IMG/VR virus record: IMGVR_UViG_3300047491_000541
Direction: 5' to 3' (one strand)
Source of the DNA: an uncultured virus (IMG/VR IMGVR_UViG_3300047491_000541)
Taxonomy: Duplodnaviria > Heunggongvirae > Uroviricota > Caudoviricetes
DNA length: 20,000 bases
The notes under the pieces: generated by a model
Told to the model about the DNA's origin: nothing
What the model saw: only the letters and a program-made list of their open reading frames with translations
Database searches by the model: none
Position numbers and translations under genes: made by a program
In this document: piece after piece, positions 88 to 18,029 of the stretch
How the letters are laid out: each line of letters opens with the position of its first letter
Numbering within the stretch: position 1 is the stretch's first letter

Positions 88-563
88 TAGCGTACCTCCG
101 ATCCAGAATATACCGACAAATGGCTGGTGCCTACATCGTCCCGCCCCGGCACATCACCGGAGTTATTGCCACACATCGGGCTGTTCGCATACTCAAACCG
201 CTCGCGCATCTGTCGCACCTTGTCATGCGGCACGCCGTGTACGTTCTGCCACTCTCCACGCATCACGACTTCACGCACTTCGTAGCCGAGGCGCTTTGCC
301 ACAGCGCGATAGTATTCCATCTCCCACAGGCGGGTAAACGTGTTTGAGACGACGCACGGGCGACCGGCCTCCATCGCCTGACGTGCTTTTTCCTGACACC
401 ACTCGTGCGCCTGTTTGATCTTCTCCGGATCATATCCGCCGTTGGCGTCAAACCACTTGTCAGCCTCATAATGATCTGGAATGCCGAGCGTTTTGGCGTA
501 CGTGGTCTTTCCACTTCCCGGCACGCCGCGAATCAAATAAAGAATTCGAACAGGGGTCGTCAC
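87..563 (-). CDS. P-loop nucleotide/polynucleotide kinase (AAA_33 / N4BP2-like)
   Basis: LYLIRGVPGSGKTT Walker A, EADKWF, AHEWCQ, VVSNTF, NVHGVP motifs; GGAGGT RBS. Confidence 0.9.
   Translation of the reverse strand: MTTPVRILYLIRGVPGSGKTTYAKTLGIPDHYEADKWFDANGGYDPEKIKQAHEWCQEKARQAMEAGRPCVVSNTFTRLWEMEYYRAVAKRLGYEVREVVMRGEWQNVHGVPHDKVRQMRERFEYANSPMCGNNSGDVPGRDDVGTSHLSVYSGSEVR
169..189 (+). repeat. Conserved attI-like/half-site motif copy 1 (CCACACATCGGGCT-GTTCGCA)
   Basis: Variant of motif seen 8 times; GTT at 183. Confidence 0.7.
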
Positions 564-619
564 CGTACACCTCCCACTGCGCGTCCGGTTGCCGGTGCGC
601 CTGTGCGTTCGCCGTCTTT

Positions 620-640
620 CCGTATATCGGACTGTTGGCC
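620..640 (+). repeat. Conserved attI-like/half-site motif copy 2 (CCGTATATCGGACT-GTTGGCC)
   Basis: Matches consensus; GTT at 634, abuts stop of 640..828. Confidence 0.75.
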
Positions 641-828
641 TAGAGCAATGCTTCGCATTTTTGGTCTTTCAGAACTCCGTCTTCCGCTCGTGCCTGTCCG
701 CAGAACCCGAGAGAACACGTTAGATTCCCGCCCTCGTTTGAGAAGTGTTCGCAAATTTCGCGTTCTCCGAAATGCTCCCAGCAGTACGACCCGCTCGGAA
801 CTTTTATCGGCAGGTTGACCTTTTTCAT
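640..828 (-). CDS. Hypothetical Cys-rich protein
   Basis: AAGGAG RBS, ATGA overlap with upstream gene, 5 Cys. Confidence 0.7.
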   Translation of the reverse strand: MKKVNLPIKVPSGSYCWEHFGEREICEHFSNEGGNLTCSLGFCGQARAEDGVLKDQKCEALL

Positions 829-1121
829 GTTCTCCTTTCGCACTGGCCGATGGCTGCGAGGGCGTAGCGCAGTGCCCGTTCTAGCTTTGCCGTTTCGTGT
901 CCACGTTGTGCAAACTCATTCGCCCATTTCTCAGTCATGGCGGTCAGTTCGGTTTCGAGTTTTTGAATCCGCTCGATAGCCGCTCCTACCGTGTCGGATG
1001 ATCGCTTGTCTCCTTGACTCAGTAAGGCTCCTTGCAACTGTTGCAAGGCGCTTGTGAGGGTCAAGGACTGGCCTTGCTCTATGCTGTCCAGTTTAATAGT
1101 CGTATCCTTTTCGTTCTTCAT
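825..1121 (-). CDS. Hypothetical coiled-coil protein
   Basis: ORF track 825..1148; heptad-like IERIQKLETELTAM; start uncertain. Confidence 0.6.
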   Translation of the reverse strand: MKNEKDTTIKLDSIEQGQSLTLTSALQQLQGALLSQGDKRSSDTVGAAIERIQKLETELTAMTEKWANEFAQRGHETAKLERALRYALAAIGQCERRT

Positions 1122-1149
1122 GCCAGCACTATCGCATAACCATTTCATA

Positions 1150-1181
1150 CATACATTACCGAATTTCGGTCAGAATAAGAA
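1150..1181 (-). promoter_or_regulatory. Putative phage promoter (TTCTTA-17 bp-TAATGT) with AT-rich upstream tract
   Basis: 24/30 identical to 18421-18450; intergenic, oriented with the genes. Confidence 0.55.
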
Positions 1182-1288
1182 AAAAATTTTTCAGTTTTCA
1201 CGGTTTTACCATATAAGTGAGATTTCTCACCCCTTATGCCAGTCAATAACAATTTTTTCAATTTCTGTCGCTCGGAAGGGACCGGAAT

Positions 1289-1345
1289 CCCAAACAGGGT
1301 CTCGGAGCCTACGGGTTCCCGCGAGGTTCTAGCCCAGTGTTGGCA
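1289..1345 (+). mobile_element. attC-like site (57 bp)
   Basis: CCCAAAC-AGGGT-CTCGGAGC ... GTTCTAG-CCCAGT-GTTGGCA; 5/6-nt spacers, extra base in left L box; overlaps MTase 3' end. Confidence 0.75.
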
Positions 1346-2139
1346 CTACTGACGCGCCGCCTTGCCACCCGGCAAAACTCTTCATTCGCGTCAATTCCGA
1401 TGTACTTTCGCCCTGTCTCGTTGGCGGCTTCCGTTGTCGCGCCTGCACCGTTGTGCGGGTCAAGAACCACGTCGCCGGGGTAGGTGTAGAGTTTGATGAG
1501 CCTGCGCGGTATCTCCACCGGGAACACGGCTGGGTGTTCCTTGCAAGACGCCCCGCGCACGAACCACACGTCCAGCGTCCACGCCATCCACTCCGCCTTC
1601 GTCATATCTCCACGGACGCACAGGCCGCGCCCTTCACCTGACAACACCCGCCGACCGCGCCCGCCCTTCGAGAAAATCAGGATCGGTTCAGATGCACACC
1701 GTATGCTCGGTCCAGACGGGGAAAGGTACGTTCCCCATCCACAACCTCCGCCGCCACACCCGCCGCTTGTGTGGACGTTGTTCGAGTCCCCCTTGATCCA
1801 GATGATCTTGTCAAGCATCGTCCATCCAACAGCCTTCGCCACGGTCTTGAACTGGAAAGGAACGTCCCGACGGGGCTTCTTACCCATCCACCACGGTAAA
1901 TTGACAGCAAGGCGGCACCCTGGCCGCGTCACCCTGAAAACTTCGCCAAGCCATGCTTCCGTCTGGCTCCAGTAGTCGCCCCACGGCAGAGCATCCGACG
2001 TTGTGCCATAGTCCTTGCCGCAGTTGTAGGGCGGCGAAGTCACGGTCAGATCAATGCACTCGGATGGGAGCGAAGACAAGACGGCCAGACGGTCGCCGTG
2101 GACAATCTGCCCCAATAAAGCGGTGGAGGGTACGCTCAT
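1309..2139 (-). CDS. DNA methyltransferase, N6_N4_Mtase family, beta class
   Basis: DLTVTSPPY catalytic motif N-terminal; HPAVFP; VVLDPHNGAG SAM-binding motif; RKYIGID. Confidence 0.93.
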   Translation of the reverse strand: MSVPSTALLGQIVHGDRLAVLSSLPSECIDLTVTSPPYNCGKDYGTTSDALPWGDYWSQTEAWLGEVFRVTRPGCRLAVNLPWWMGKKPRRDVPFQFKTVAKAVGWTMLDKIIWIKGDSNNVHTSGGCGGGGCGWGTYLSPSGPSIRCASEPILIFSKGGRGRRVLSGEGRGLCVRGDMTKAEWMAWTLDVWFVRGASCKEHPAVFPVEIPRRLIKLYTYPGDVVLDPHNGAGATTEAANETGRKYIGIDANEEFCRVARRRVSSANTGLEPRGNP

Positions 2140-2167
2140 AACGGCAGAATCCTTTTGATTTCTCCTT

Positions 2168-2452
2168 TCATCGCGAATCCTTCCACGCTTTCCACGCTTT
2201 GGCGCGTGACCATGCGCCTAACTGTTTGCGGCACTTCGCGCTCGAATCACTGCAATCTGCGCCTAGCGACTTAGCAGGGCACTTCAAACAAGTCCTGTAG
2301 CCGTCAATGAGTCCAGCCAGTACCTGCACCTGCCGCTCGGCAATCTCCGCACGGGCGGTCAGGGTAGTAAGTTCTCGGTTCAGTGTATCCGCAAGCTCTC
2401 GTAATTCAACGGTCTGCTTGAATGGTTTGTCAATCTTCGGTTTCGCTCTCAT
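2168..2452 (-). CDS. Hypothetical protein (coiled coil plus CxxC)
   Basis: ORF track; CLKC and later Cys pair. Confidence 0.65.
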   Translation of the reverse strand: MRAKPKIDKPFKQTVELRELADTLNRELTTLTARAEIAERQVQVLAGLIDGYRTCLKCPAKSLGADCSDSSAKCRKQLGAWSRAKAWKAWKDSR

Positions 2453-2571
2453 CCCTTGCCTACCTTCTCTGCTGCGTGATTCTTTTCGAGAACGAACTTA
2501 ATACCCCAGTTTCCGCCCCAGAAGATCGTCTTCTAGTCGCCTTTAGTTCATCCACGCCTTGATTTCTTTTA

Positions 2572-2955
2572 TCAATCATCATCGTGTAGTTCGTCACAAA
2601 TCCGACTCGGTATCAGATCATCAAGCTCTGTACGATCATCGTCCTCGTCGTCTTTTTCACCCTCCTCGTCATCCTCGTCAACATCATTGTCCCGAGCAGA
2701 ACTCTTGATTGGTAAGTAATACCGAACATTCTTAACATCAGAGAATAGATAAGAATCCTCGTTGTCGCTCGACAAGTCCATAAAATCATTGTCCTTTATT
2801 CTCGGCCAACAAGGACCAATCTCCAAATTGTTCTTAAGCCGAATATCACAAAACTCTGGAAAAGGCTTGGTGTTTCTGAATGTTTCCCAAACCTTGCCCG
2901 GACGAACATGATTGTCTTGCATCCAATCCGCTTTGTCAAAATCACTCATAATCAC
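2572..2955 (-). CDS. Hypothetical protein with acidic C-terminus
   Basis: ORF track; GAGGAG RBS; D/E-rich tail. Confidence 0.7.
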   Translation of the reverse strand: MIMSDFDKADWMQDNHVRPGKVWETFRNTKPFPEFCDIRLKNNLEIGPCWPRIKDNDFMDLSSDNEDSYLFSDVKNVRYYLPIKSSARDNDVDEDDEEGEKDDEDDDRTELDDLIPSRICDELHDDD

Positions 2956-3019
2956 TCCTCATTTATCCCTTGTCATTCAAATCACATTACCAAATGGACG
3001 ATGAAATATAATTTATATT

Positions 3020-3292
3020 TTAAAAGTTTATAGGACCACTCCCTAAAACATAACCATCTGGATGATCGCCTACCGATTCCAATAGAGGTAAGAGCTTGGT
3101 CGAAGAGACGATCTGAGCCTCACCAGCCTCACCATACCGGATTGAAACCAGGGTAGCTCTCCGTGGAGGATCAGCAGGACTCCCGACTAGATTCTTAAAT
3201 GCCTTCTCGACACCCTGAACCTCGGCGAAAAGCTGAACATTGATCTCGCCACTCTCTTCCTCCATCAACAACACGCCTAATTCTTTTCTCAT
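3020..3292 (-). CDS. Hypothetical protein
   Basis: ATG at 3292 overlaps upstream stop (ATGA), GAGG RBS. Confidence 0.7.
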   Translation of the reverse strand: MRKELGVLLMEEESGEINVQLFAEVQGVEKAFKNLVGSPADPPRRATLVSIRYGEAGEAQIVSSTKLLPLLESVGDHPDGYVLGSGPINF

Positions 3293-3816
3293 GCACCTCT
3301 CCATTTCCAGAACCACTTTTTCTCGACCTTACGAATCATGTCTTCCACACTATATCTTGGATTACCCTCATGCCTCATCTCATCAGGAATGTCTTTCTTC
3401 AATTTTCCACGATAGAGCTTGTCCGGCAAGTTGATAACCAAACCATCATCCTGACCGGTGTTCGCATAGGCATGAATGACTCCCGGTGGAACAACCACCG
3501 TAGTCGGCTTGGATACTAAAATCGTTTTCTTGATGCCATAAGTCTTAGAAAGAAAACGCTCATCCCAAAGCCTGACAACCCACTCCCCAGTCAAAAAGAT
3601 GAATATGTCGGTTTGCTGAACATGCTCGTGTGGACCTCGCACGGTGTCCGGCTTCGTGCAAGAGATGTATGACATCGCTGGCATCACCGGAATATCCAAG
3701 TCATCCGAACGCCATACCTCCATGAGCCATCCTCGATGATCCTCATTCTTCGCGAGCAACTTGACCGAAACACCATCAATAAAATATCCAGATTTCCATT
3801 CCATTTTCCCCCCCAT
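3289..3816 (-). CDS. rmlC: dTDP-4-dehydrorhamnose 3,5-epimerase family (RmlC-like cupin)
   Basis: DHRGWLMEVWR, VRGPHEH, VVVPPGVIHAY motifs. Confidence 0.85.
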   Translation of the reverse strand: MGGKMEWKSGYFIDGVSVKLLAKNEDHRGWLMEVWRSDDLDIPVMPAMSYISCTKPDTVRGPHEHVQQTDIFIFLTGEWVVRLWDERFLSKTYGIKKTILVSKPTTVVVPPGVIHAYANTGQDDGLVINLPDKLYRGKLKKDIPDEMRHEGNPRYSVEDMIRKVEKKWFWKWRGA

Positions 3817-3840
3817 ACACTCGTTTGCCTACATCAACGA

Positions 3841-4065
3841 CTACCGTTCCATATTGTTGCTGTCCACGTCATCGTAAGCGGCCTTTAGTAAAACCTGCGC
3901 CATCTCATATACACCCTCCGGACCATACTTGCATAACAACATATCCACAGACTCAGCCTCACTTGGATTGAAAGAAACAACCTCTTTGGGCAGACGAGAT
4001 ACCGGAGAACATTCTTCGGTCACGCTACCGATTGGACCATTATAATTGCAATGTGCCATTATCAC
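3841..4065 (-). CDS. Hypothetical protein
   Basis: ORF track; coupled to upstream gene. Confidence 0.6.
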   Translation of the reverse strand: MIMAHCNYNGPIGSVTEECSPVSRLPKEVVSFNPSEAESVDMLLCKYGPEGVYEMAQVLLKAAYDDVDSNNMER

Positions 4066-4457
4066 CCTCCCTTTCGCTTTGGTTTACCTAACTTCTTTGC
4101 CTCATCCACGAAGGCATCAAGTGTTTTATTCACATATTCTTTCCAAAGGTCATTCGCTATGCGAGTCAACATCCCATTCTTCGCTATATCCTCAATCTTT
4201 ATAGGAACCCCTCCTATACGAATTTGAAGAGCCGCTAGACACTTCACAAGCATCTGCCCATCACCCTTGACCGTATGCACTAAAACGATGACTGTGGGCA
4301 GTATCCGTCCGTTTACCATGATGTCCACGGACCAATTACTTAAAGTGATCTCAGTTGCGGTGTCCCCAGCGTTGCCTTTATCATCAAAGTCCACCAGAAT
4401 GTTCTGACCCGATGGACCCAATACCACATACCCATTTGGAATGTCTGTCGCCTTCAT
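4062..4457 (-). CDS. Hypothetical protein
   Basis: ORF track; AGGGGT RBS. Confidence 0.7.
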   Translation of the reverse strand: MKATDIPNGYVVLGPSGQNILVDFDDKGNAGDTATEITLSNWSVDIMVNGRILPTVIVLVHTVKGDGQMLVKCLAALQIRIGGVPIKIEDIAKNGMLTRIANDLWKEYVNKTLDAFVDEAKKLGKPKRKGG

Positions 4458-4590
4458 TTAACCCCTATCCCATTAATCATTCAAACTGTCGTATTCTACC
4501 CCGCCTGCCAACTTCCTGATAAGAAAAAACATCATTTCCACCGCAATCAGAACATAGTCCATCTATATGTCGAACACGTAGCACGTACAT

Positions 4591-4884
4591 TCATCTAACC
4601 CTCTCATCATCGTAAACATAAACCCTCCCACCCGGAAAATTGCCGACAGACATAGTCCTGTCAAACTTGTATTCACAACGACAATACCCGTACTTCATCC
4701 ACTCTCTTAAATCACTGGCGCTCTGAAACACCGTCCTGCTCAAACATAGGGAACACTCCACCCAATACCAAGTCTCATGCCCTAAAGCCTCATTCAAAAC
4801 CATCCTAAGCCGATCTAGAGTCATGACCTTGAAAAAGGAAATCTCCCTATCTACTTCTTGCTCTGCTTGAACTATCCCGCCCAT
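4591..4884 (-). CDS. Hypothetical protein with CxxC/CxC motifs
   Basis: ORF track; VECSLC, YCRC. Confidence 0.6.
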   Translation of the reverse strand: MGGIVQAEQEVDREISFFKVMTLDRLRMVLNEALGHETWYWVECSLCLSRTVFQSASDLREWMKYGYCRCEYKFDRTMSVGNFPGGRVYVYDDERVR

Positions 4885-4999
4885 TCTTTACCTTTTTGTT
4901 TTTACTAAACCACTTGATGCTATCATACCCCTTCCGGTATCGATCTATATCCTTGACCCGACTCACTGACCCCTTGCCCGCCTCATGCTCTCCTATCAT
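4847..4999 (-). CDS. Small basic hypothetical protein
   Basis: ATG at 4999 with GAGGGGT RBS; AGKGS...YRKGYDSIKW. Confidence 0.55.
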   Translation of the reverse strand: MIGEHEAGKGSVSRVKDIDRYRKGYDSIKWFSKNKKVKNGRDSSSRARSR

Positions 5000-5230
5000 C
5001 TTACCCCTCTCCAAATAACTCTGATAAACCACTAAATCTTCCGCTTCATCCACCCATGTACAAAAATAGCCATTTTCCAAAACCTCGAAATTTTAAATTT
5101 TGAAACACCCTTTCTCTAAATATCTTCTTTCAACCATTTTACCCCATTTCCTAAAATGTAAATTTTATAAATTTCCGAAACGTAGAATAGGCCCCCGCTC
5201 TTGAAATTCATTCAGCTAGATTTATAGCTG

Positions 5231-5296
5231 TCCTATCCTATCCTATCCTGTTAAACTTACCCCTCTGATTATACCCTATCTCTGATTATACCCTAC
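5231..5296 (+). repeat. Short tandem repeats: (TCCTA)x~4 and 17-bp CTCTGATTATACCCTAY x2
   Basis: Seen at 5231-5249 and 5263-5279/5280-5296. Confidence 0.85.
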
Positions 5297-5519
5297 CCTC
5301 CGCTTTCACGATGATCCTCCCCCTCCCACAGACACCATCTCTGACGGATCTGCAGGCTTTTTATAATTTTAATGTGTTCCACCAAACTGTAAAATGAGCG
5401 TAATAATATAATAAGCATAGTTTTCGCCCTTGACGGACTACACACCATTCTACTCTGTAAATAGTTTGCAATTGAATCACTTATGAGATTTTACAAGCAT
5501 TTTTTACTTGATTCTGAAA

Positions 5520-5555
5520 GTGAGTGTAAATACCACTTTTCGTGAGTGTAAATAC
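5520..5555 (+). repeat. 14-bp direct repeat GTGAGTGTAAATAC x2, 22-bp period
   Basis: Copies at 5520-5533 and 5542-5555 in AT-rich non-coding region. Confidence 0.85.
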
Positions 5556-5635
5556 TTTCAAAAGTAAAGAAAAAAGTTTGGTTTTATACATCATAGGGGG
5601 ACTTGTAAGATTAACCCATTTTGGGTGTCACGTCC

Positions 5636-5848
5636 TCAGTAAGTCTTCGTTATCAGAACAGTTCTCTCCGAGTTTTTATCGCTAGGGATAGTGTCCTGCG
5701 GATACCACATAGTCGGCTCACTATCGAATGAAGTCAGCTTGTAGCCCTGACACCGCTTTGCAAAATGAGACTCCAACATGTGGATACATGTAATGCAATT
5801 TCTTGGATCAAAATTCCCCAGACCAACTTTGTCTTTTTTCTCCGACAT
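5636..5848 (-). CDS. Hypothetical CxxC protein
   Basis: ORF track; NCITCIH. Confidence 0.55.
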   Translation of the reverse strand: MSEKKDKVGLGNFDPRNCITCIHMLESHFAKRCQGYKLTSFDSEPTMWYPQDTIPSDKNSERTVLITKTY

Positions 5849-6386
5849 ATGCCTAGCTTTTTTGATAGTTTTTGTCTCTATTTATGTCCTTATATGATAC
5901 TACCCTTACTTTTACCCTTACTTAGTGATTATTACCCTTTCTCGCCTTCTAGGTGGGGGGGGTCAATTTCTATTAATTACAAGTGACGTATAAACTGAAG
6001 ATTTTTCTATAGTATAGGAGAACATCAATTTACAACAGCGTGTGGAAATATTATTATGGGTGTTTGATTTCGACCCATCTTTTTGGTTATTAGAGGGGTG
6101 TTGGTTTCATTGTGTCTGACTTCATGCGTCCTTTTTGGGGCATATAAGATTCGATGTCCCATCTGCGTGTTTCGGCTTAACAGGACAGAACAAGCGACCG
6201 TTGAACAAAAGGTGGAAACACCTTCATGTGTCACGGGCTACGGTAATAAATGCCCATCCAAGAACCGTTGAAGTAGATTCATGGTGGCGTTATGGTCATG
6301 CGGATGACGCTGACCACAGGCGGTGCTTCGTTTATGATATTTGGACGGGAGTATGAGGCTTTCCTGTTGCCGGGAATATTGTGGCT

Positions 6387-6923: not shown

Positions 6924-6997
6924 GATTTTGGTCTCCTTGTTTTTGAGTTATCGTTCTATAGTGATAAATCGAAAAGGTCTGCCTGCAGGAGCCGAAT

Positions 6998-7273: not shown

Positions 7274-8054
7274 TGAGATTACCTCTTCGTTGTCTCTTGC
7301 GAAAAGACCATTTATCAAAGCCATGAGATTCAGCCTTGATTTTGTCAAGAACTGGATGATCTTTTATTGATCCATCCCTTTTCACATCCCTCTTAGCCAG
7401 TTCATTTGTAAGATACCTCTCAATTGAATTAAATGCGGAAAATGGATCAATCCTCCGGTGCATCAGGACGACAGAAAGAACTGGATTTATGATAACTGAG
7501 GATGAATACTGGCATAGTCCATCCCTTCTCGCGTAATTAGCATCATCGCCCATCATTTCTGGAACACCGTCGGCATGACAGAAAATAGGGGCATTCAATT
7601 TACGATGCATTTCATCGATGGAGATTTTCTGAGCGACAGCATGACCGGGCAATTTTACGGCGGTAAAATCTATTGCGCCCCACGGCTTATCAGCTAGATC
7701 GAAAAGAGCCTTCATCCTTTTTTGGGGCGAGAAATCAAATGCATTTTTATCATTGATAATCTTGGACGGCAGATCATTATACGAGAAGACATAAGACTCC
7801 CGACCAGAAGTTGTGGTTATACGAGCCACTGGGATAGCTTTCCCGCAGAACCAAATGACAAAACCGAAAACGTCAACACCAGCAGGCTGCCTCTGAGGCT
7901 TATAAATCCGCTCGCCAAGGAGAACTGGAGAAGGAATGGCAAATTTGACATCAACTACTTTTGGTTTTCTTTCCCAAGAGTAGGTTTGATCTGACATCAT
8001 TTTATCACGAGCTAGATAGTCGTAATAGTCTTTGTATGTGCTAATTAGTTTCAC
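7266..8054 (-). CDS. Phage hypothetical protein
   Basis: 262 aa; ends MKLISTYKDYYD and HGFDKWSFRK resemble a phage hypothetical family as I recall it (not verified). Confidence 0.8.
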   Translation of the reverse strand: MKLISTYKDYYDYLARDKMMSDQTYSWERKPKVVDVKFAIPSPVLLGERIYKPQRQPAGVDVFGFVIWFCGKAIPVARITTTSGRESYVFSYNDLPSKIINDKNAFDFSPQKRMKALFDLADKPWGAIDFTAVKLPGHAVAQKISIDEMHRKLNAPIFCHADGVPEMMGDDANYARRDGLCQYSSSVIINPVLSVVLMHRRIDPFSAFNSIERYLTNELAKRDVKRDGSIKDHPVLDKIKAESHGFDKWSFRKRQRRGNLSE

Positions 8055-8512
8055 TCTTGTCTTACTTCCTGTTCGATAGGTCTATTTTCTACTAAATTGG
8101 TATGTCCATCGAGATAAAGAAAACGCACGGCATTAGTCCCCTGATAGTCCCCCGAACATACTGGACACTGAAATCTTGCATAGGTCGGAAGTCTTTTAAT
8201 GGAATCACATACTGGGCAAGCCGGACTTGAAAACTCGTCGGTTTGACAAATTGAGCAAAAAATTTGTTTGGTTGGTTCTGGATTAACTTTGAGTCCCTTA
8301 GATATGATTGACAACATCTTTTCCTTCTCCACTGGAGAGAATTCTCCTTCGGGTTTAAAGTTGACAGTCATACGGGAATAAGGCAAGGCAAGATATTGAG
8401 TGCCGTTCCCACCGACACAACCAGCCAAAATAAAACCAATAAACACGGTTGGCAACAATACCATCTTAAACATTCTCATCTTTTTATTCCTTTTTTTTAG
8501 ATAAAAACTCAT
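8051..8512 (-). CDS. Putative lipoprotein with three CxxC motifs
   Basis: Basic N-terminus, hydrophobic stretch, ILAGC lipobox; CSIC, CPVC, CPVC. Confidence 0.7.
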   Translation of the reverse strand: MSFYLKKRNKKMRMFKMVLLPTVFIGFILAGCVGGNGTQYLALPYSRMTVNFKPEGEFSPVEKEKMLSIISKGLKVNPEPTKQIFCSICQTDEFSSPACPVCDSIKRLPTYARFQCPVCSGDYQGTNAVRFLYLDGHTNLVENRPIEQEVRQE

Positions 8513-10526: not shown

Positions 10527-10527
10527 T

Positions 10528-11465: not shown

Positions 11466-11723
11466 TTATTTCATCTTGGCTATCACTTCCATAGCTATTG
11501 CCTTGCACTCTCGCCAGATTTTACGGCTGCCAATGTCATTCGGAACAAAGGGCTTCCTGAATCTCCAACACGGAAAAGATAAACAGACTTGCTCGACCTT
11601 GGACGAGTCTCCGCCACTCATCTCCACGATGACTCCGGCAATGCGAGCCTTTTCTTCCATAGACTTTTTGGCCGCCTCTCCATATAACGTGAGCGTTATT
11701 GCGATTTCGTTTGTCATTTTCAT
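11466..11723 (-). CDS. Hypothetical protein, weak resemblance to Hydrolase_2 N-terminus
   Basis: AAGGAGG RBS; AITLTLYGEA and FPCW recall the LARTIYGEA...QFSCW pattern (weak). Confidence 0.6.
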   Translation of the reverse strand: MKMTNEIAITLTLYGEAAKKSMEEKARIAGVIVEMSGGDSSKVEQVCLSFPCWRFRKPFVPNDIGSRKIWRECKAIAMEVIAKMK

Positions 11724-11737
11724 GTCCTCCTTGATAG

Positions 11738-12193
11738 TCACCAACCAACACTTAACGGTTGGGAACTCGCAAATGTTGAATAAAAAGTAGTGCCACGATG
11801 TTCTATTTTGGGCAATTCTTTCCGAGGCTGCTTGGCAAGTCGGTAGATACCATCAACAGTCACATAAAGATGTCCAGTCTCTACTAATTCTGCCAACCCC
11901 ACGTCCCAATTGCGCCGCTTGGTTTTATCGGTGGCAATTTCTCTGGCAATAACGCCCATCATGGCATCTGATGAAGCCGAGCCTCCAAGAGACTTGATGA
12001 TATCTAAGAACATCTTTCCGCAAGGACTTACCTCGTCTTTTCCAGGTCGTCCGATTTTAGTAGGTAGTTTTCTCATAGATTTTCTCACAGATTTTCCCTT
12101 AAACGAATTCGGTCGCTTACAACCGACACTCTGCCATACTGTTGGAGCGACCTCGAACATGCTCGACAATCGCAATGCAGTGCGGGCCGACAC
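11738..12193 (-). CDS. Hypothetical basic protein, possible winged helix
   Basis: ORF track; LAELVETGHLYVTVDGIYRL. Confidence 0.6.
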   Translation of the reverse strand: MSARTALRLSSMFEVAPTVWQSVGCKRPNSFKGKSVRKSMRKLPTKIGRPGKDEVSPCGKMFLDIIKSLGGSASSDAMMGVIAREIATDKTKRRNWDVGLAELVETGHLYVTVDGIYRLAKQPRKELPKIEHRGTTFYSTFASSQPLSVGW

Positions 12194-12209
12194 CTCAACA
12201 GTAGAGCCA

Positions 12210-12458
12210 TCAGGTGTCTGATATCCACTCCCCCCTTTTATTTCTCAGAAACTCCAGCATCTTTATGCCATCCATCCTACACGAACAACGTTGAGTCTTT
12301 CCACGACCTACATACGGGACTTCTCCTCCATTTTCCTTGAAAACCGGACAGAGATTGCAATGACCTTGCCCGCTTTTCTCACACGTCTCTTGTAATGCAG
12401 TCACGATGTCGGATTCTTCAATCGGCTCCTTGTACACCAGTTTCATCAGAATGCTCAT
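12210..12458 (-). CDS. Hypothetical Cys-rich protein
   Basis: GGAGG RBS, ATGA overlap; CNLCP, CSC. Confidence 0.7.
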   Translation of the reverse strand: MSILMKLVYKEPIEESDIVTALQETCEKSGQGHCNLCPVFKENGGEVPYVGRGKTQRCSCRMDGIKMLEFLRNKRGEWISDT

Positions 12459-12838
12459 ACTTCCTCCACTTGATCACAGTTACACCATCTCTCCTCGTCT
12501 TCACGGACCCATGTCGCACAACGCTTGCAACGAAACCCGACATGCCCAGAAGACCTCTCAAACACCCAGTCACCCTTGCTACTCTGAGACCATGACCGGC
12601 GATCATGCTCCAAATCCTTGGAGACCTTGTTGTCAGTAACGATGTCTACCTCGTCAAAGTCAGGATAGTACCGGCAGCAACCGTTGCTCATGGAAAGTCT
12701 GCGCTTCTCCCAGTCAATCGTGATGATTCGGCAGACGCCAGGATCAGGCGATCGCCGCTTGTATCGAGCTAAAAACGGAGGATCTGCCAACAAAATGCAG
12801 GGTACAGTTGCCCCGCTCGCGTTTTCCTGTTCACTCAT
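12455..12838 (-). CDS. Hypothetical protein, probable two-cassette fusion
   Basis: AAGGAG RBS and ATG lie in loop of site 12785-12882; internal GTT core at 12629; C-terminal CKRC...CNC. Confidence 0.7.
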   Translation of the reverse strand: MSEQENASGATVPCILLADPPFLARYKRRSPDPGVCRIITIDWEKRRLSMSNGCCRYYPDFDEVDIVTDNKVSKDLEHDRRSWSQSSKGDWVFERSSGHVGFRCKRCATWVREDEERWCNCDQVEEV

Positions 12839-12882
12839 GGTGTTCTCCTTTGGGCAACTGCCCCTGATTTCTGAAGTTGGCA
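12785..12882 (+). mobile_element. attC-like site (98 bp) with RBS and start codon in loop
   Basis: TGCCAAC...GTTGGCA complementary ends; stem CAGGG-TA-CAGTTGCCC / GGGCAACTG-C-CCCTG. Confidence 0.8.
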
Positions 12883-12961
12883 ATCAATGCATGGTCTAGC
12901 GGCTCTTCTCTCCCCATGCACGGCGTAGTATGGGGTTGCCCCCTCCACCGCTCAGCCGGAT

Positions 12962-13018
12962 TGCCAAAAATCGTGTCAAAACTACCTCGCTTCGCTCGGA
13001 ATGTACCTGTGGAGCGGC
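12962..13018 (+). mobile_element. Degenerate attC-like site
   Basis: GATTGCCAAA pairs 9/10 with GTTGGCAATC at 12876; CTCGCTTCGCTCGG centre; right core decayed. Confidence 0.5.
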
Positions 13019-13227
13019 AGCTCAATGCCGCGCTTTGCAAGTAAGACTGCGAACCACTCCGCGCGAGTGTTGTTGTATTTCGGCCCCATCTCGAAAGCCG
13101 CGTCAATAAGGATGCCAGCAAGTTCGTCGCGTTCGGCGTCGTTCAACATGCCCAAGTCGAGCGTCGTCGACGATTCGACCACTTGCACGGTTACGAAACT
13201 GCTTGTGTGTCTGACCTTGATTTCCAT
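12982..13227 (-). CDS. Hypothetical protein
   Basis: AAGGAG RBS; 81 aa. Confidence 0.75.
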   Translation of the reverse strand: MEIKVRHTSSFVTVQVVESSTTLDLGMLNDAERDELAGILIDAAFEMGPKYNNTRAEWFAVLLAKRGIELPLHRYIPSEAR

Positions 13228-13240
13228 CGTTTGTCTCCTT

Positions 13241-13540
13241 TCAGTGTTTGTCCGTACGGCTGTCCGTGCGCCACACCAATACTATGCGGCTGTCCGTGCG
13301 CCACACCAATACTATGATCAGCACTAACAGCGATACCAAGGCCGTGAAGCAGAGGGCGCCGACGCAGAGGGCGAGCACCGTGAACCAGCGATCACCGCCG
13401 GCGGAGTGATTCAGCAAGGCGGCGATGCCGGCGGCCATCGTGAATGCACCGGCGGCCATCGTGTAAGCGATGATCCATGAAAGCGAGGGCCATTCGAGGA
13501 GGGCCACGAGAAACAGGTGTTTGAGGTTCTTCTTATTCAT
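13241..13540 (-). CDS. Hypothetical membrane protein
   Basis: AAGGAG RBS; 2-3 hydrophobic segments; duplicated IVLVWRTDSR. Confidence 0.7.
   Translation of the reverse strand: MNKKNLKHLFLVALLEWPSLSWIIAYTMAAGAFTMAAGIAALLNHSAGGDRWFTVLALCVGALCFTALVSLLVLIIVLVWRTDSRIVLVWRTDSRTDKH
13257..13316 (+). repeat. Perfect 30-bp tandem duplication
   Basis: CGGCTGTCCGTGCGCCACACCAATACTATG x2. Confidence 0.95.
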
Positions 13541-13568
13541 CGAACTCCTTTTTGGGGGTGGCAAAGAG

Positions 13569-14231
13569 TCACCTCTTGGCGTTGGGCTTCGTAACCCTAA
13601 GTGTCTTAACCAACCGATAGTTGTCCGAGTCGAAGTCCTCAGAGCAACCAGCTCGACCTACATTGCGACCAGCGACGCACACATGCAGTGTGCCGCGGTG
13701 CCGACTCTCATAAACCTCGACCAAGTTGCCGACCACTGCCATAACGCAATCAATTGGCGGATAAGGCTTGCCATCCGGGCCAGTAACATTCCTGTCGATT
13801 TCGATGCTGATGTGTCGTACTACGTCGAACCACACAAAATGCTTTTTCCCGAAACCGAGCAACCGTTTGATCTTCTTCCACATGTTCTTCATCGTTGTCC
13901 TTTCGTTAGATTCTTGCCCGAACAATCGCTTGAGCCAACGGCAAGTACGCCATGGCTCACCTCCCGTGTTGGCCTTGCGCGTAACCCACGTCACCAAGCC
14001 CAACGGCGTGTACAGATTCCAGTATCTGGCCGTGCCGTTCGCGCCGCCGTACTTGCAAGCGACCCAGCCGCTGCGTGCACGGTACACGTCCAACGTGAGG
14101 CGTCCGACGTGCAGGCGAATCAGCCGCTTGCCCCACGTCGAGACGTTCAGAGATCGCCAGCCGTAGGTGTGCCTATCCGCTTCGGCAGAGTACGGGTCCA
14201 GTGTTGCATCAATCGTCGTTGTCCCGTTCAT
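13569..14231 (-). CDS. Hypothetical ORF spanning two cassettes (internal start 13892)
   Basis: AAAGGA RBS before both 14231 and 13892; reads through site 13917-13974. Confidence 0.65.
   Translation of the reverse strand: MNGTTTIDATLDPYSAEADRHTYGWRSLNVSTWGKRLIRLHVGRLTLDVYRARSGWVACKYGGANGTARYWNLYTPLGLVTWVTRKANTGGEPWRTCRWLKRLFGQESNERTTMKNMWKKIKRLLGFGKKHFVWFDVVRHISIEIDRNVTGPDGKPYPPIDCVMAVVGNLVEVYESRHRGTLHVCVAGRNVGRAGCSEDFDSDNYRLVKTLRVTKPNAKR
13917..13974 (+). mobile_element. attC-like site (58 bp) inside coding sequence
   Basis: CCCGAAC...TGAGCCA-ACGGC-AAGTAC-GCCA-TGGCTCA...GTTGGCC hairpin. Confidence 0.75.
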
Positions 14232-14261
14232 TGTGTCCTTTCTGCACCGGCTGACCAAGAA

Positions 14262-14318
14262 GGCCAACCAGCGCATCGAAGCGACGACTACCCGCCGTGC
14301 CTCACGCTTTTGTTATTG
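14262..14318 (+). mobile_element. attC-like site (57 bp)
   Basis: GGCCAAC-CAGCG-CATCGAAG ... CCTCACG-CTTTT-GTTATTG; left end pairs 9/9 with 13968. Confidence 0.75.
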
Positions 14319-14894
14319 CCGCATATCGGACTGTTGGGCTGTCAGCATATCAGCCAGTCCCGCTGCGATGGCCTCGTGCCCTGCGCGATTCGGGTGTATG
14401 TCGCGTCCGTCAAAGTGATGAGGCAGAAGGACACTTCTCGTGTCGAAGGTCTCAACACCATCCGGCAATGCGCCGCATATAGCAGCGTTGAGCAACGGGC
14501 ACGCGATTGCTGACCTGATGTCTCGTCCGCAAAACGGGTCTGCGTACAGCAGAACAATAGTGCGTGCCTTTCGGACGGTCTCCACCGTGCGCCGCAACGC
14601 GGACACCCCGGCGCTGACCTCATCCGGCGTCACGGTTCCGTCTGCTATCGCCGCAAAAGCGTCGTTGCCGAGCAGCGAAATGATAACCACGTCGGCGGAT
14701 GTCTGTGCGGCACGAGTCAAGCGTCCATCGAAATTATCGGCCCACTGCGCGGCCGTGCTGCCAGCGATGGCCTGCCGCAGGTCGTCGGCAATGCCAAGCA
14801 TCATCGGCCAGCCCATGCGGTCGCCCTCTCCAGCAACCACGGCTGAGGACCACGAATCCCCGACAACTAGCGCATTCAGTGAGATCGTCTTCAT
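14313..14894 (-). CDS. SGNH/GDSL hydrolase (esterase/deacetylase)
   Basis: VVGDSW block I, AIAGST block II, LLGND block III, DIHPN block V; ATG 14894 overlaps upstream stop. Confidence 0.9.
   Translation of the reverse strand: MKTISLNALVVGDSWSSAVVAGEGDRMGWPMMLGIADDLRQAIAGSTAAQWADNFDGRLTRAAQTSADVVIISLLGNDAFAAIADGTVTPDEVSAGVSALRRTVETVRKARTIVLLYADPFCGRDIRSAIACPLLNAAICGALPDGVETFDTRSVLLPHHFDGRDIHPNRAGHEAIAAGLADMLTAQQSDMRQ
14319..14339 (+). repeat. Conserved attI-like/half-site motif copy 3
   Basis: CCGCATATCGGACT-GTTGGGC; GTT at 14333. Confidence 0.8.
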
Positions 14895-15361
14895 TCCTTG
14901 TCCCCTCCTACATCGTTCCGCCGAGGAACATCCCCGGCGGTATTGAGGCGTATCGCGCTGTTGGCCTTGCGGATGGCCTGCACCACTTCGCCCAAGGCGA
15001 CTGATCGTCCCTTGAACCACTCTGCGCGAATTGCGTTGCCTGCGGCTTCCTGCTGCTGCGCGTGTTCCCACGCCAGATCGGCAGAGGATTGAACCTCGGC
15101 CAACACTGCGGCCAACACTGCGTCCAAGGTACGCGGCTGCACCGCGCCCGTGACACTGGCGTTCGGCTTCAATGTCCCGCCGTATGCGTGGTCTGGACAG
15201 TATGTCTTTCCGTTGCTGAGGCACTGCCATCCACGCTTCTGCATGACCGGCTCAACGGCACGCTGCCCGTCAAACTCTCCGTTGACGTACTCAGACTCGA
15301 CCGAACATCCTCCAAAGTCGCACTGCAACTTGCTTTGCCCACGTCCTACGATTGTGCCCAT
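14891..15361 (-). CDS. Hypothetical two-module protein (Zn-finger-like plus helical) fused through an attC-like site
   Basis: AAGGAGGT RBS; CDFGGC...YCPDH, then linker encoded by 15110-15167. Confidence 0.75.
   Translation of the reverse strand: MGTIVGRGQSKLQCDFGGCSVESEYVNGEFDGQRAVEPVMQKRGWQCLSNGKTYCPDHAYGGTLKPNASVTGAVQPRTLDAVLAAVLAEVQSSADLAWEHAQQQEAAGNAIRAEWFKGRSVALGEVVQAIRKANSAIRLNTAGDVPRRNDVGGDKE
14946..14966 (+). repeat. Conserved attI-like/half-site motif copy 4 (divergent)
   Basis: AGGCGTATCGCGCT-GTTGGCC; lies in a 59-bp block homologous to 130-188. Confidence 0.7.
15110..15167 (+). mobile_element. attC-like site (58 bp) inside coding sequence
   Basis: GGCCAAC-ACTGC-GTC[C]AAGG-TACGCGG-CTGCA-CCGCGC-CCGTGAC-ACTGGC-GTTCGGC; canonical spacers and extra C. 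Confidence 0.85.
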
Positions 15362-15362
15362 A

Positions 15363-15626
15363 TCAGACCTCCTTCCGAAAAGTCGAGCCAGAGCATTCAG
15401 GCGCGGGTACTCCAGCCTGAGCCTCGGCGTTCGCCTTCTTGATCTTGTCATGCAGGTTCTCGTACCGTTTTGCCAGCCTATTTGCGGCGCGGACCGTGCG
15501 CGTCTGGTCAGGTGTCTGATGCCACGGTTCCAGCGTGTGAACGTCGGCAATGGACTCTTGCCAGAGCTTGGCGTCCCACAGCGCGGACAACAGGAGCGGA
15601 ATGTCCCGGCGAGCGAGAGGCTTCAT
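15363..15626 (-). CDS. Hypothetical protein
   Basis: AAGGGAG RBS; C-terminus runs through degenerate site 15374-15435. Confidence 0.7.
   Translation of the reverse strand: MKPLARRDIPLLLSALWDAKLWQESIADVHTLEPWHQTPDQTRTVRAANRLAKRYENLHDKIKKANAEAQAGVPAPECSGSTFRKEV
15374..15435 (+). mobile_element. Degenerate attC-like site
   Basis: TCAGGC/GCCTGA stem; CCTGAGC-CTCGGC-GTTCGCC right arm. Confidence 0.5.
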
Positions 15627-15841
15627 GATATCGTCTCCCTTCGGTCGCCGAAGCATGAGTCTCGGCGTTGGATGTTCGGTTTACAGTTCCGGCAAAGCGG
15701 CAGAACTTGAGTGATGCCAACGTTACCGACGCTGTAGAACTCAACATGCGTCGTTGACCTACAAACCGAACACGCCGGTGCAGAACTACCGGCGACCAGC
15801 GCCGCTTGCGTCTGTCTCTCAACCATGCGTTGTGTGTTCAT
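15623..15841 (-). CDS. Zinc-ribbon microprotein
   Basis: GAGGAG RBS; CSVC...CRNC. Confidence 0.7.
   Translation of the reverse strand: MNTQRMVERQTQAALVAGSSAPACSVCRSTTHVEFYSVGNVGITQVLPLCRNCKPNIQRRDSCFGDRRETIS
15765..15835 (+). mobile_element. attC-like site encoding N-terminus of 15623..15841
   Basis: ACCGAAC-ACGCC-GGTGCAGA ... TCTCAAC-CATGC-GTTGTGT; left end pairs 9/9 with 15674. Confidence 0.65.
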
Positions 15842-15844
15842 CGC

Positions 15845-16453
15845 TCACTCCTCCTTCGCGCTGGCTGGTTTTACGTCAACCGGAACCAAGTTTGTGTCGA
15901 TGCGAGCCTCATTGGATAGCAGTTTTCGCACGAAGTTGTCCGCCTCGGTCCAGATTCCCCCCTTGAGACTACCCGCCGTAACCACGTTTGTGCAGAGGCC
16001 AGCCTCATCGTCTAGCGGTTTTTCGTTTTGGTCAGACACGGTCCACATACCATCCTTGTACATACCCACACTCACTAGGTTTGTGCCGAGGCTAATCTTA
16101 CCGTATAACATCACTGTGATGTGGTCAGATATACCGAAGACGGGCCACTTGCGCATGTATACCGTGACCATGTTTGTGTCGCTTGTTCCATTGAGACTGC
16201 CCATCGTAACCCTTTTTGTCACGGTGACATGCTCTTCGGCTAGTATTCTTATGGTGGGGTCCGGAAAGATGTCGTGGGCCTGACTCATCGGAAGCCATTT
16301 GTCGGTGCGATCATCCTCGGCTGGCGGGTTTCTCTGTAGTTTCAGCTTGTCACTGCCTACCGCCACCCCCAGCGCAAAGCAAATCACGTAGCTAATTGCC
16401 CTCGCCACATACCGCACAACCCGCCCACGCTGCTTAAATGTCTTCACTGTCAT
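15845..16453 (-). CDS. Hypothetical membrane-anchored protein
   Basis: AAAGGGGTGA RBS; N-terminal hydrophobic segment. Confidence 0.75.
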   Translation of the reverse strand: MTVKTFKQRGRVVRYVARAISYVICFALGVAVGSDKLKLQRNPPAEDDRTDKWLPMSQAHDIFPDPTIRILAEEHVTVTKRVTMGSLNGTSDTNMVTVYMRKWPVFGISDHITVMLYGKISLGTNLVSVGMYKDGMWTVSDQNEKPLDDEAGLCTNVVTAGSLKGGIWTEADNFVRKLLSNEARIDTNLVPVDVKPASAKEE

Positions 16454-16502
16454 ACAATCACCCCTTTCTCATTACCGCCCCGCCACGGCCATTTATTGGC
16501 CG
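16450..16502 (+). repeat. Leader repeat A copy 1 (hairpin, RBS, ATG on minus strand)
   Basis: Identical to 17087-17138 except one T. Confidence 0.95.
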
Positions 16503-16504
16503 TT

Positions 16505-16526
16505 GCGCATATCGGGCTAGTTGGGC
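16505..16526 (+). repeat. Conserved attI-like/half-site motif copy 5 (1-nt insertion)
   Basis: GCGCATATCGGGCT[A]GTTGGGC; GTT at 16520. Confidence 0.75.
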
Positions 16527-16831
16527 GTACAGGGTATTCCTTGCTGCGTCAGGAACACCGATCCGTGCCCATACTTCATGGCGTATCGTTGAACAGCCAT
16601 CCAGAACGAGTCCACGTTTCCGTTGCACTTCGCGGACCAGTTCGCCATGCGAAACGTAAGTCCTTGCGTGCCCTCTACGCAGTAATGCGTCCGGCCATAA
16701 TCACCAGGCGCCCACTCCACCAGCGCGATGAAGTTCAGGCCGTGCGCCTGCGCGTCCTTCGCCAGTTCGGACAGTTTCGGGGCAATCACTTCATCGTAGT
16801 ATTTCTCTCCGTCTGTCACTTGCCACCTCAA
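16517..16831 (-). CDS. Hypothetical protein
   Basis: ORF track; EKYYDEVIAPKL...GNVDSF; start uncertain. Confidence 0.75.
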   Translation of the reverse strand: MRWQVTDGEKYYDEVIAPKLSELAKDAQAHGLNFIALVEWAPGDYGRTHYCVEGTQGLTFRMANWSAKCNGNVDSFWMAVQRYAMKYGHGSVFLTQQGIPCTPN

Positions 16832-16839
16832 TTCATTAC

Positions 16840-16896
16840 GCCCAACAAGCCGTCGTGATCGACGGCTACCCGCCGCGCTTCATGCTTTCGTTGTGC
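16840..16896 (+). mobile_element. attC-like site (57 bp)
   Basis: GCCCAAC...GCTTCAT-GCTTTC-GTTGTGC; left end pairs 10/10 with 16520, right end 11/11 with 17043. Confidence 0.8.
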
Positions 16897-17090
16897 GTCT
16901 GCTTACGAAGTTCCGTCATGCACTTGGCGCACATCCTGATTTCAAGGTGCCGATGTTCGTCGTTGGACCGCACCACCCACACCATGCGCTCGGTGTTGCG
17001 CGTGCAGAAATTGCATCCGCCACTGTTTGCCGTTGACTCCCAAGACGCACAACAAGTTCGTCGAGGGCATTCCTCATTCGCTGCGCTCAT
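16866..17090 (-). CDS. Zinc-ribbon microprotein
   Basis: CNFC...CAKC; start supplied by leader repeat A. Confidence 0.75.
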   Translation of the reverse strand: MSAANEECPRRTCCASWESTANSGGCNFCTRNTERMVWVVRSNDEHRHLEIRMCAKCMTELRKQTHNESMKRGG

Positions 17091-17138
17091 ACAATCACCC
17101 CTTTCTCATTACCGCCCCGCCACGGCCATTATTGGCCG
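17087..17138 (+). repeat. Leader repeat A copy 2
   Basis: See 16450-16502; lies between GCACAAC (17047) and GTTAGGC (17151). Confidence 0.95.
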
Positions 17139-17151
17139 GTAGCATTGGCGG

Positions 17152-17463
17152 TTAGGCTTGTTGCCATTCAGCCCCACAGTCCAGACATCGCGGCGGGTCC
17201 GACATGTGCGACACGCGACAGACGTGCCCTGTCGAACCAGCCACTTGAGCGGACGGAGTACCGCCGATCACTTGCACGTCCGCATCCGCGAGAGCCGCCC
17301 GCGCGAGGTCGCGCATGGCGCAGGCTGTCGTGTCGCCGTCCGCGAGCGCGTTGGCAGCGAACCGGCAGTCCTCTGAACATGCCATCAACCTATCGCACTC
17401 CGGGCAGGTCGCAATTGAGACAAGCGCGGCGTGCAATCCCTCGCACTTGCTGCATGTAGTCAT
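17152..17463 (-). CDS. Cys-rich protein, probable fusion across site 17231-17284
   Basis: CSKC, CPEC, CLDC; stop lies in GCCTAAC. Confidence 0.7.
   Translation of the reverse strand: MTTCSKCEGLHAALVSIATCPECDRLMACSEDCRFAANALADGDTTACAMRDLARAALADADVQVIGGTPSAQVAGSTGHVCRVSHMSDPPRCLDCGAEWQQA
17231..17284 (+). mobile_element. Degenerate attC-like site inside coding sequence
   Basis: GTCGAAC-CAGCC-ACTTGAGC-GG...CCGCCGATCAC-TTGCAC-GTCCGCA. Confidence 0.55.
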
Positions 17464-17515
17464 GACGTTTCCCCCATCCCCATTATTTGCCGTTCTTGCC
17501 GCATATCGGGCTGTT
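17437..17515 (+). repeat. Leader repeat B copy 1 (includes motif copy 6, RBS, MTTCSKCEG codons)
   Basis: 78/79 identical to 17947-18025. Confidence 0.95.
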
Positions 17516-17518
17516 CTG

Positions 17519-17680
17519 CTAATTGGCGTCGGAGTATCGCCCGCACGAGCCGCAATAGCGATGTATCTTCCCCGGCCTTTCCGGCGACGACAGGCGAAGC
17601 ATGTGTGTGCTCTTACAGAACTGGCACCGTCGAACAGGCCTCTTGAATTGACCGCTCACAGCGCGTTTATTTTTAGTCAT
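17519..17680 (-). CDS. Zinc-ribbon microprotein
   Basis: ATG 17680 after GGGGAGGG; CQFC...CGSC. Confidence 0.7.
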   Translation of the reverse strand: MTKNKRAVSGQFKRPVRRCQFCKSTHMLRLSSPERPGKIHRYCGSCGRYSDAN

Positions 17681-17731
17681 GACGTTTTCCCTCCCCATTA
17701 TTGGACGTTTCCGCATATCGGGCTGTTCGGC
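17674..17731 (+). repeat. Leader repeat B divergent copy (includes motif copy 7)
   Basis: TAGTCATGACGTTT...TCCCCATTATT...CCGCATATCGGGCT-GTTCGGC. Confidence 0.85.
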
Positions 17732-17973
17732 AATACAAGCCGGTAGCACGGGAACTCGCGGTCCATATCCAGCACCGGCAACATCGTTGACTTGCGAAAC
17801 CGAATGACATGCTGCGAGTCAACCGCGCGGGCGTGCCACTCGGTTCTGGTCTCTTTGCACAGGATGCCGTCTTTCGTCGGCTGATAGCATCCATAAGACG
17901 GAACAAGCCGAACCATGCGGTCCATATTACTCCCTCCCTGCGGTCTTCCCTCGCACTTGCTGCATGTAGTCAT
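17698..17973 (-). CDS. Hypothetical protein (alternative start MDRMV)
   Basis: First 9 aa identical to 17152..17463; ends PNSPICGNVQ in the motif. Confidence 0.65.
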   Translation of the reverse strand: MTTCSKCEGRPQGGSNMDRMVRLVPSYGCYQPTKDGILCKETRTEWHARAVDSQHVIRFRKSTMLPVLDMDREFPCYRLVLPNSPICGNVQ

Positions 17974-18029
17974 GACGTTTCCCCCATCCCCATTATTTGC
18001 CGTTCTTGCCGCGTATCGGGCTGTTGGCG
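17947..18029 (+). repeat. Leader repeat B copy 2 (includes motif copy 8)
   Basis: See 17437-17515; GTT at 18023. Confidence 0.95.

Follow-up and report, generated by a model that had tools for sequence, protein, structure and literature searches.

We describe a short repeated motif in 20,000 nucleotides (nt) of DNA from an uncultured virus of the Caudoviricetes (IMG/VR record IMGVR_UViG_3300047491_000541), hereafter the window. Nearly all genes of the window lie on the minus strand, as indicated by G+C skew, ribosome-binding sites and the few protein-family matches. The motif occurs eight times, always on the same strand. The initial annotation of this DNA had placed eight copies, each with GTT at its edge, at the 3' ends of genes. 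All eight GTT positions were correct and all eight copies do lie at the 3' end of a gene, but the genes run antisense to the orientation it had assumed. On the coding (minus) strand the motif reads (G/C)CC-AACAGCCCGATATGCGG-(C/A)AA, and its GTT edge becomes AAC. The copies are as follows, in plus-strand coordinates, with the distance to the next start codon downstream:

169..185, minus strand: copy 1, 2 mismatches; translated as ANSPMCG at the end of the AAA_33 ATPase gene 563..87; next start codon (87-85) 81 nt downstream.
620..636, minus strand: copy 2; TAG of gene 828..640 in frame, two codons ahead of AAC; GTG start of the ATPase gene (563) 56 nt downstream.
14319..14335, minus strand: copy 3; covered in another frame (QQSDMRQ*) by the 3' end of the GDSL-type hydrolase gene 14894..14313; ATG at 14231, 87 nt downstream.
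14946..14962, minus strand: copy 4, the most diverged, 4 mismatches; forms the tail ANSAIRLNTAGDVP (ANSAIRL) of gene 15361..14891; ATG of the hydrolase gene (14894) 51 nt downstream.
16505..16522, minus strand: copy 5; one extra base (before GTT on the plus strand) makes the TAG stop of gene 16831/16819..16517 (...TPN*); ATG at 16453, 51 nt downstream.
17499..17515, minus strand: copy 6, consensus; TAG of gene 17680..17519 two codons ahead of AAC; ATG at 17463, 35 nt downstream.
17711..17727, minus strand: copy 7, consensus; forms the tail PNSPICGNVQ* of gene 17925/17973..17698; ATG at 17680, 30 nt downstream.
18009..18025, minus strand: copy 8; forms the tail ANSPIRGKNGK* of gene 18331..17993; ATG at 17973, 35 nt downstream (database-called start 17925).

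The number of copies is far above chance. Seven of the eight lie within 3 mismatches of the consensus given in the initial annotation, where 0.07 are expected from 200 shuffles. The eighth, at 14946-14962, appears at 5 mismatches or fewer, a setting at which the opposite strand yields 0 copies. Information content reaches 2.0 bits at 9 of the 17 motif positions. The drop in identity after GTT that had been reported is indeed sharp; three adjoining G+C-rich bases stay weakly conserved (1.0-1.5 bits) and the content then falls to about 0-0.9 bits. On the coding strand, conservation stops sharply upstream of the motif and fades gradually downstream, by position ~20-24. Six copies are 0-3 changes from the consensus, in one case a single inserted base, despite unrelated surroundings. 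Because the motif is conserved while its leaders and flanks are unrelated, its preservation argues for function in the 20 base pairs (bp) themselves. The exact motif was found at 1 unrelated locus in viral contigs and at 117 loci in metagenome contigs. Since every match is single, with a second same-strand copy within 3 mismatches at 0 of the 118 loci, these are chance matches. A full-text literature search with three sub-strings of the motif gave unrelated papers only, as judged by title and abstract. The motif is new in sequence and ordinary in kind.

All eight copies share one anatomy, in which the 3' end of one small gene is followed by the next start codon 30, 35, 35, 51, 51, 56, 81 or 87 nt downstream, preceded in eight of eight cases by a Shine-Dalgarno-like sequence. 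This position on the coding strand, 30-87 nt upstream of the next gene, had not been weighed previously and suggests that the element is regulatory. Where two genes are tightly coupled, with at most 3 nt between them, the gap has no motif; in two such pairs (copies 1 and 4) the motif lies inside the read-through tail of the upstream gene. The peptide tails noted in the initial annotation are real for the four upstream genes that read through the motif (ANSPMCG, ANSAIRL, PNSPICG and ANSPIRG), and copies 1 and 4 share a 20-residue tail. They do not exist for the remaining copies, three of which have an in-frame TAG just before or inside the motif (twice two codons ahead of AAC, once as AAC-TAG through the inserted base), while the fourth is overlapped in another frame. 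Read-through or recoding of TAG was considered and rejected, since 10 of 48 genes use TAG as an ordinary stop and the genes with family support are intact. Paralogy of the motif-flanking genes was likewise rejected, as self-blastp matched the shared tails only.

Behind the motif lie at least five unrelated types of leader, three of which are found twice each. Hairpins occur just behind the motif in the leaders of copies 1, 4 and 5, and others are without them. The repeated blocks and a partial inverted copy are located as follows:

17437..17515, minus strand: 79-nt block made up of motif, leader and codons 1-9 (MTTCSKCEG) of gene 17463..17152; 99% duplicate at 17947-18025, ahead of gene 17925..17698.
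16450..16506, minus strand: 57-nt leader behind copy 5; 89% repeat at 17087-17143, with a decayed motif upstream of the repeat at ~17140-17162.
130..188, minus strand: 59-nt block of motif and leader, common to 14907-14965 (76%).
14282..14314, minus strand: 33-nt leader behind copy 3; 85% repeat at 16860-16892, with no intact motif ahead of the repeat.
16837..16851, plus strand: inverted partial junction copy (flank and first motif bases); 14 of 15 bases match the complement of 16515-16529.

The 79-nt duplication ends precisely at the AAC/GTT edge. Blocks of motif plus leader have also been copied between places in the window. Gene 16819..16517 is bracketed by the inverted 15-mers, and a perfect 8-bp hairpin with a 4-nt loop (16848-16867) lies just upstream of it. 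Because the duplicated block offers a second in-frame start at 17973 (MTTCSKCEG...), 16 codons upstream of the database-called start at 17925 (MDRMV...), the N-terminus of gene 17925/17973..17698 is uncertain.

The AAC edge coincides with breakpoints in the homologues of three upstream genes. For the ATPase, 31 homologues (~65-88% identical) were fetched, and 27 sequences, namely the window protein and 26 homologues, were aligned. The run ...RFEYAN is present in 23 of the 27; beyond it all tails differ, two stopping one residue later, and the NSPMCG tail of the window protein is found in 0 of the 26 homologues. Both homologues of gene 17925..17698 (87-89% identity) run ...YRLV(L/M)PN and then diverge, one of them with a tail like that of window gene 18803..18489. 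For gene 16819..16517, 6 of 21 homologues have ...PN plus 7-21 more residues at the place where the window has a stop and the motif. Since the tails of the homologues diverge just after AAC, this AAC pre-exists in the gene families, with the window sequence changing right behind it. Positions 13000-20000 gave no blastn match among 50,697 phage records, a protein-based search in viral contigs and species genomes returned ATPase relatives only (50% identity or less), and tblastn of all 48 window proteins against 181 loci found the ATPase and one RP12 protein shared and nothing else.

Contigs from two metagenome runs were aligned to the window at 80% likeness or more. Contig depth is flat at ~63-73 in the middle (~2,000-12,600; single contigs) versus up to 1,194, or up to 16 times as much, in the motif-bearing parts; because depth is so high there, these parts exist in many variants. 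Some contigs join distant places of the window. One joint runs from 14945 to 18001 and has the topology of a deletion, another leads from 16503 back to 14942, as a circle or a tandem duplication between two copies would, and others connect 16514 to 17279 and 168 to 19822. In contig X1 (depth ~90 vs ~119) the 36 nt at 605-640, including copy 2, are in tandem repeat, and two X3 contigs diverge from the window at 14963. A motif copy is touched by 4 of the 15 joints, most other breakpoints being other gene boundaries. One further indel concerns the following stretch:

13581..13973, minus strand: stretch between two (G/C)CCAAC sites (13968-13973 and 13581-13586) without the rest of the motif.

In one contig, ~90% alike, 13581-13967 are missing, and the two sides of the joint have 5 bases in common. 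The 220-codon frame 14231-13569 on the minus strand looks like two modules fused in frame at the GCCAAC site (13968-13973), and a related contig is without the second module.

The contig joints at motif edges are supportive, not decisive, for a joining role. Together with the homologue breaks and the 79-nt block, they lend support to the GTT/AAC edge as the place where different genes join. To this extent the earlier proposal of dispersed insertion platforms has support, whereas its integron reading is unsupported, as discussed below.

Our preferred reading, to which we give an even chance, makes the motif a regulatory linker of promoter type, specific to the phage, which doubles as a joint for recombination. 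This uncultured freshwater phage would have a family of such intergenic linkers, with the motif as their conserved core of ~20-23 bp; in each, a small gene would end at the motif or just ahead of it, and a leader of 30-87 nt that includes a ribosome-binding site would lead to the next gene. We infer that the motif works as a phage-specific promoter whose reader would be either an RNA polymerase encoded by the phage or the host enzyme after redirection by a phage factor, and the first transcribed base would be the purine of motif position 12-14. Since these 20 bp are repeated in a single orientation, they may also serve as recombination joints, at which modules of motif, leader and gene would be duplicated, deleted and reshuffled. 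The traits of a promoter are present in that the motif is ~20 bp long, asymmetric, co-oriented with the genes and upstream of them, and always has a leader and a ribosome-binding site behind it. Sigma-70-type promoters number 0 on either strand of 12500-20000, versus 3.5 expected, and the sole sigma-70-like site in 1-2500 is on the opposite strand. Promoters of the T7 type are phage-specific and serve a phage-encoded RNA polymerase.

Several characterized phage promoters resemble the motif. The phage-specific promoter of LUZ19 is a 20-bp motif, and characterized phage-polymerase promoters are nearly invariant in sequence and position among relatives (PMC10914365). The motif is like them in being ~20 bp long, asymmetric and in one orientation, in the high similarity of its copies, and in lying upstream of genes or overlapping the end of the preceding gene. 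It is unlike the Phikmvvirus promoters, as far as that source describes them, in that the protein tails of relatives do not show the motif kept in the same places. Late promoters of the non-virion RNA polymerases of jumbo phages were also compared, using the AR9 pattern A(-11)ACA-(6N)-T-A/G(+1) and the phiKZ element T(-3)ATG(+1) (PMC7598289). The first 12 motif bases fit the AR9 pattern in seven of eight copies, the exception being the copy with the inserted base, and the phiKZ element TATG is found in five of eight. Those elements, as presented there, have 4-6 specified bases, whereas 17-20 are conserved here, and nothing indicates such a polymerase or uracil DNA in this phage; a likeness to jumbo phages exists in one window protein, which shares 53% identity with a protein from Ralstonia jumbo phages RP12 and RP31. 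We regard the fits to the LUZ19, AR9 and phiKZ promoters as compatibilities rather than tests, and the AR9 and phiKZ elements are very short, so that they may offer only a lead.

The joining role is paralleled by the promoter early stem-loop elements (PeSLs) of T4-type phages. According to the two reports, these are AT-rich, promoter-containing linkers of ~100 bp with a sigma-70 consensus promoter and a terminator stem-loop, located upstream of small genes of unknown function, and they bring about insertions, deletions and the formation of mini-circles (Arbiol et al. 2010, PMC2839356; Comeau et al. 2014, PMC4122927). As so described, PeSLs and the present linkers are alike in being repeated intergenic cassettes, bordered on one side by the stop of a small gene without known function and on the other by the next gene's ribosome-binding site, in being concentrated in variable regions, in carrying the expression signals of the downstream gene, and in forming joints at which relatives differ by insertion, deletion and replacement, circle-type products among them. 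The motif lies between small genes of unknown function and has breakpoints and joints at its edges, as expected of a PeSL. It differs from PeSLs, as portrayed in those reports, in being ~20 bp long and G+C-rich, with no sigma-70 match and no constant stem-loop, and it often lies inside the upstream reading frame. By analogy, the motif would work like a PeSL but is not one.

Several observations weigh against a promoter-type linker that doubles as a joint. Seven of the eight upstream genes share the frame AAC-AGC-CCG by manual count, a bias (binomial p ~0.003 at 1/3 per frame; ~0.04 if one gene-fusing frame is excluded) that a promoter does not predict. Two leaders recur without an intact motif. 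NSPICG-like tails are found in none of the related proteins of the three families (70-93% identical; 0 of 26 for the ATPase, 0 of 2 and 0 of 21), protein data being such that they would not show motif copies lying behind a stop codon. Phage-polymerase promoters, in the source cited above, are nearly invariant among relatives, whereas here other peptides follow the same AAC. Among the sequencing runs listed, no RNA run contains the stretch, and two RNA-labelled runs cover only ~45 low-complexity bases near 2635-2686. No gene for an RNA polymerase, sigma factor or regulator was seen among the open reading frames (ORFs) of the window, whose 20 kb belong to a contig that measures at least 73 kb. 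Lastly, contig joints at repeats may stem from other loci or organisms.

Among other explanations, an asymmetric operator for a phage DNA-binding regulator that would block or tune transcription through gene junctions is unlikely, although a parallel exists. The stoperators of cluster A mycobacteriophages are asymmetric 13-bp sites found genome-wide in temperate phages with a known repressor. Like these, the motif is short, non-palindromic, present in many copies at gene junctions and oriented with transcription; it is also conserved above its flanks, and many of the small Cys-rich window proteins without a family could bind DNA. Unlike the case of stoperators, no repressor or lysogeny gene was seen in the window, nor was any other regulator identified there. 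An operator would not need the distance of at least 30 nt to the next start that every copy keeps, and it would leave the genes promoterless, there being no other promoter type in the region. A signal at the RNA level, such as a processing or protein-binding site that controls the downstream gene of a polycistronic transcript, seems very unlikely. The motif does lie between genes in the transcribed strand, with hairpins just behind it in several leaders; no fold involving the motif is shared across the eight copies, Rfam gave 0 matches at E up to 1, and the spacing of 30-87 nt keeps the motif clear of the ribosome-binding sites. A functional C-terminal peptide tag (..A/P-N-S-P-I-C-G..) on unrelated proteins would account for the seven genes in frame, the four that read through and the tail common to copies 1 and 4, yet we find it extremely improbable. 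A stop precedes or interrupts the motif in three copies and one copy is in another frame, the tails end differently, TAG is an ordinary stop here, and by information content the copies behind stops are as conserved as the translated ones.

The attachment sites of integrons, which the initial annotation had favored, belong to the question of whether the AAC/GTT edge is cut by a recombinase. Integrons have one attI site beside the intI integrase gene, and their attC sites consist of two pairs of inverted boxes (R''/L'' and L'/R'), one strand of which folds into a hairpin of 57-141 nt, with the core GTTRRRY of R' at the crossover. The window resembles this in having GTT at an edge where flanks change, followed in some copies by GGGC, and in its one-orientation array of small, promoterless-looking genes. 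GTT is present in all eight copies, and the next four bases fit RRRY in only two of the eight (GTTGGGC at 14333 and 16520). Integrase, recombinase and transposase families are absent from the 54 ORFs of the window. The attI-like reading does not fit this absence or the presence of eight copies instead of one beside intI. The alternative of truncated attC right arms fares no better, as no arm folds with the motif and attC-like box pairs with inner complementarity number 0 on either strand of the whole window. The lack of a complementary arm, as reported initially, was confirmed for all eight copies within 200 nt on either side, where the best pairing is 9-13 of 18 versus a shuffle mean of ~10 and maximum of 12-14. 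The conserved part here also travels with the leader of the downstream gene, as it does not in integrons. Because there is no integrase in 54 ORFs, no attC fold and no arm, and because there are eight sites, the reading of the motif as an integron attachment site is not supported.

More broadly, a site-specific recombination site with crossover at AAC/GTT, whether integron-like (attI-like or truncated attC) or of the shufflon type, at which cassettes are inserted and excised, is quite improbable. It gains from the exact stop of identity to relatives at AAC in three gene families, the indel bounded by two CCAAC sites, the copies that fit GTTRRRY and the joints with the topology of deletion and circle or duplication products. 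Set against these are the missing recombinase, the lack of a hairpin partner, attC-like structure or Rfam match, the fit to GTTRRRY in only two of eight copies, and the fact that all copies are direct repeats beside expressed-looking leaders; homologous recombination between 20-bp repeats explains the same joints. We consider it similarly doubtful that cassettes are exchanged without hairpins, with a dedicated enzyme from another part of the genome, or microhomology-guided copying, cutting and rejoining modules of promoter-like motif, leader and small gene at a fixed (G/C)CCAAC. The AAC breakpoint in three unrelated gene families, the indel flanked by motif-less CCAAC sites and the inverted partial junction copy are compatible with it. 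If true, the phage would have a functional counterpart of the integron based on simple double-stranded sites. That the motif is one end of a small non-autonomous mobile element (a miniature inverted-repeat transposable element or one of the IS200/IS605 type), recently spread within this phage lineage by insertion 3' of an AAC target, is also very unlikely. Such an element would explain the sharp left boundary at a short target-like sequence already in relatives, the single orientation of all copies and the failure to see the exact motif in the protein tails of relatives. Nevertheless, all copies share only 17-24 nt, with at least five unrelated types behind the motif and no common right end, no subterminal hairpins are shared by the copies, and no transposase is present among the 54 ORFs.

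The remainder of the window provides the setting for the motif and its neighbors. Family matches were obtained for the following genes:

563..87, minus strand: AAA_33/PHROG ATPase.
2139..1309, minus strand: N6/N4 DNA methylase.
3804..3289, minus strand: cupin.
14894..14313, minus strand: GDSL-type hydrolase.

The remaining ~50 of the 54 ORFs scanned had no family match, and no tRNAs were found in the window. The window ATPase is common among phages generally. Freshwater and lake metagenome runs from two studies contain 0.91-0.94 of the sampled words of the window. From the family matches, the mostly family-less ORFs and the freshwater and lake occurrence, the window appears to be an accessory-gene region of an uncultured phage. 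Its low-G+C middle (~2000-12600; 37-49% G+C vs 54-61% in the flanks) holds 0 motif copies and looks like a strain-specific island inside a backbone common to relatives. Within this island, the 245 nt of intergenic sequence ahead of gene 8512..8051 include an AT-rich 34-nt repeat pair (85% identical; 8649-8682 and 8714-8747). Gene 13540..13241, whose small product resembles a membrane protein, contains a perfect 30-nt tandem duplication (13257-13316) and a 20-nt near-duplicate (13428-13468). Small Cys-rich proteins with CxxC pairs adjoin the motif (17463-17152, 17090-16866, 17680-17519, 15841-15623 and 87-1); they appear zinc-ribbon-like, and none of them matched a family.

A second one-orientation motif of ~25 nt was noted on the minus strand at 1140-1187, 11423-11470 and 18411-18458, with a weaker copy near 12950-12980. 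It consists of a TTGACA-like part followed 9-10 nt on by GGTAATGT, and it is located in long AT-rich intergenic regions ahead of gene blocks. Its spacing is unlike that of sigma-70 promoters, and most copies are without the GG of sigma-54 promoters. This motif may represent another promoter class.

We would classify the main motif as a new sequence family within a known kind of element, the phage regulatory linkers or promoter-like repeats that take part in modular shuffling. For annotation it carries a warning, in that gene callers turn it into spurious shared C-terminal tails. If it is a promoter, it would give a handle on the transcription program of an abundant, uncultured group of freshwater phages, would mark small genes that are separately driven, and would predict a phage-specific polymerase or factor. 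If it is a recombination joint, the shuffling of regulatory cassettes known from T4-type phages would also work with a short, G+C-rich element that is not of the sigma-70 type.

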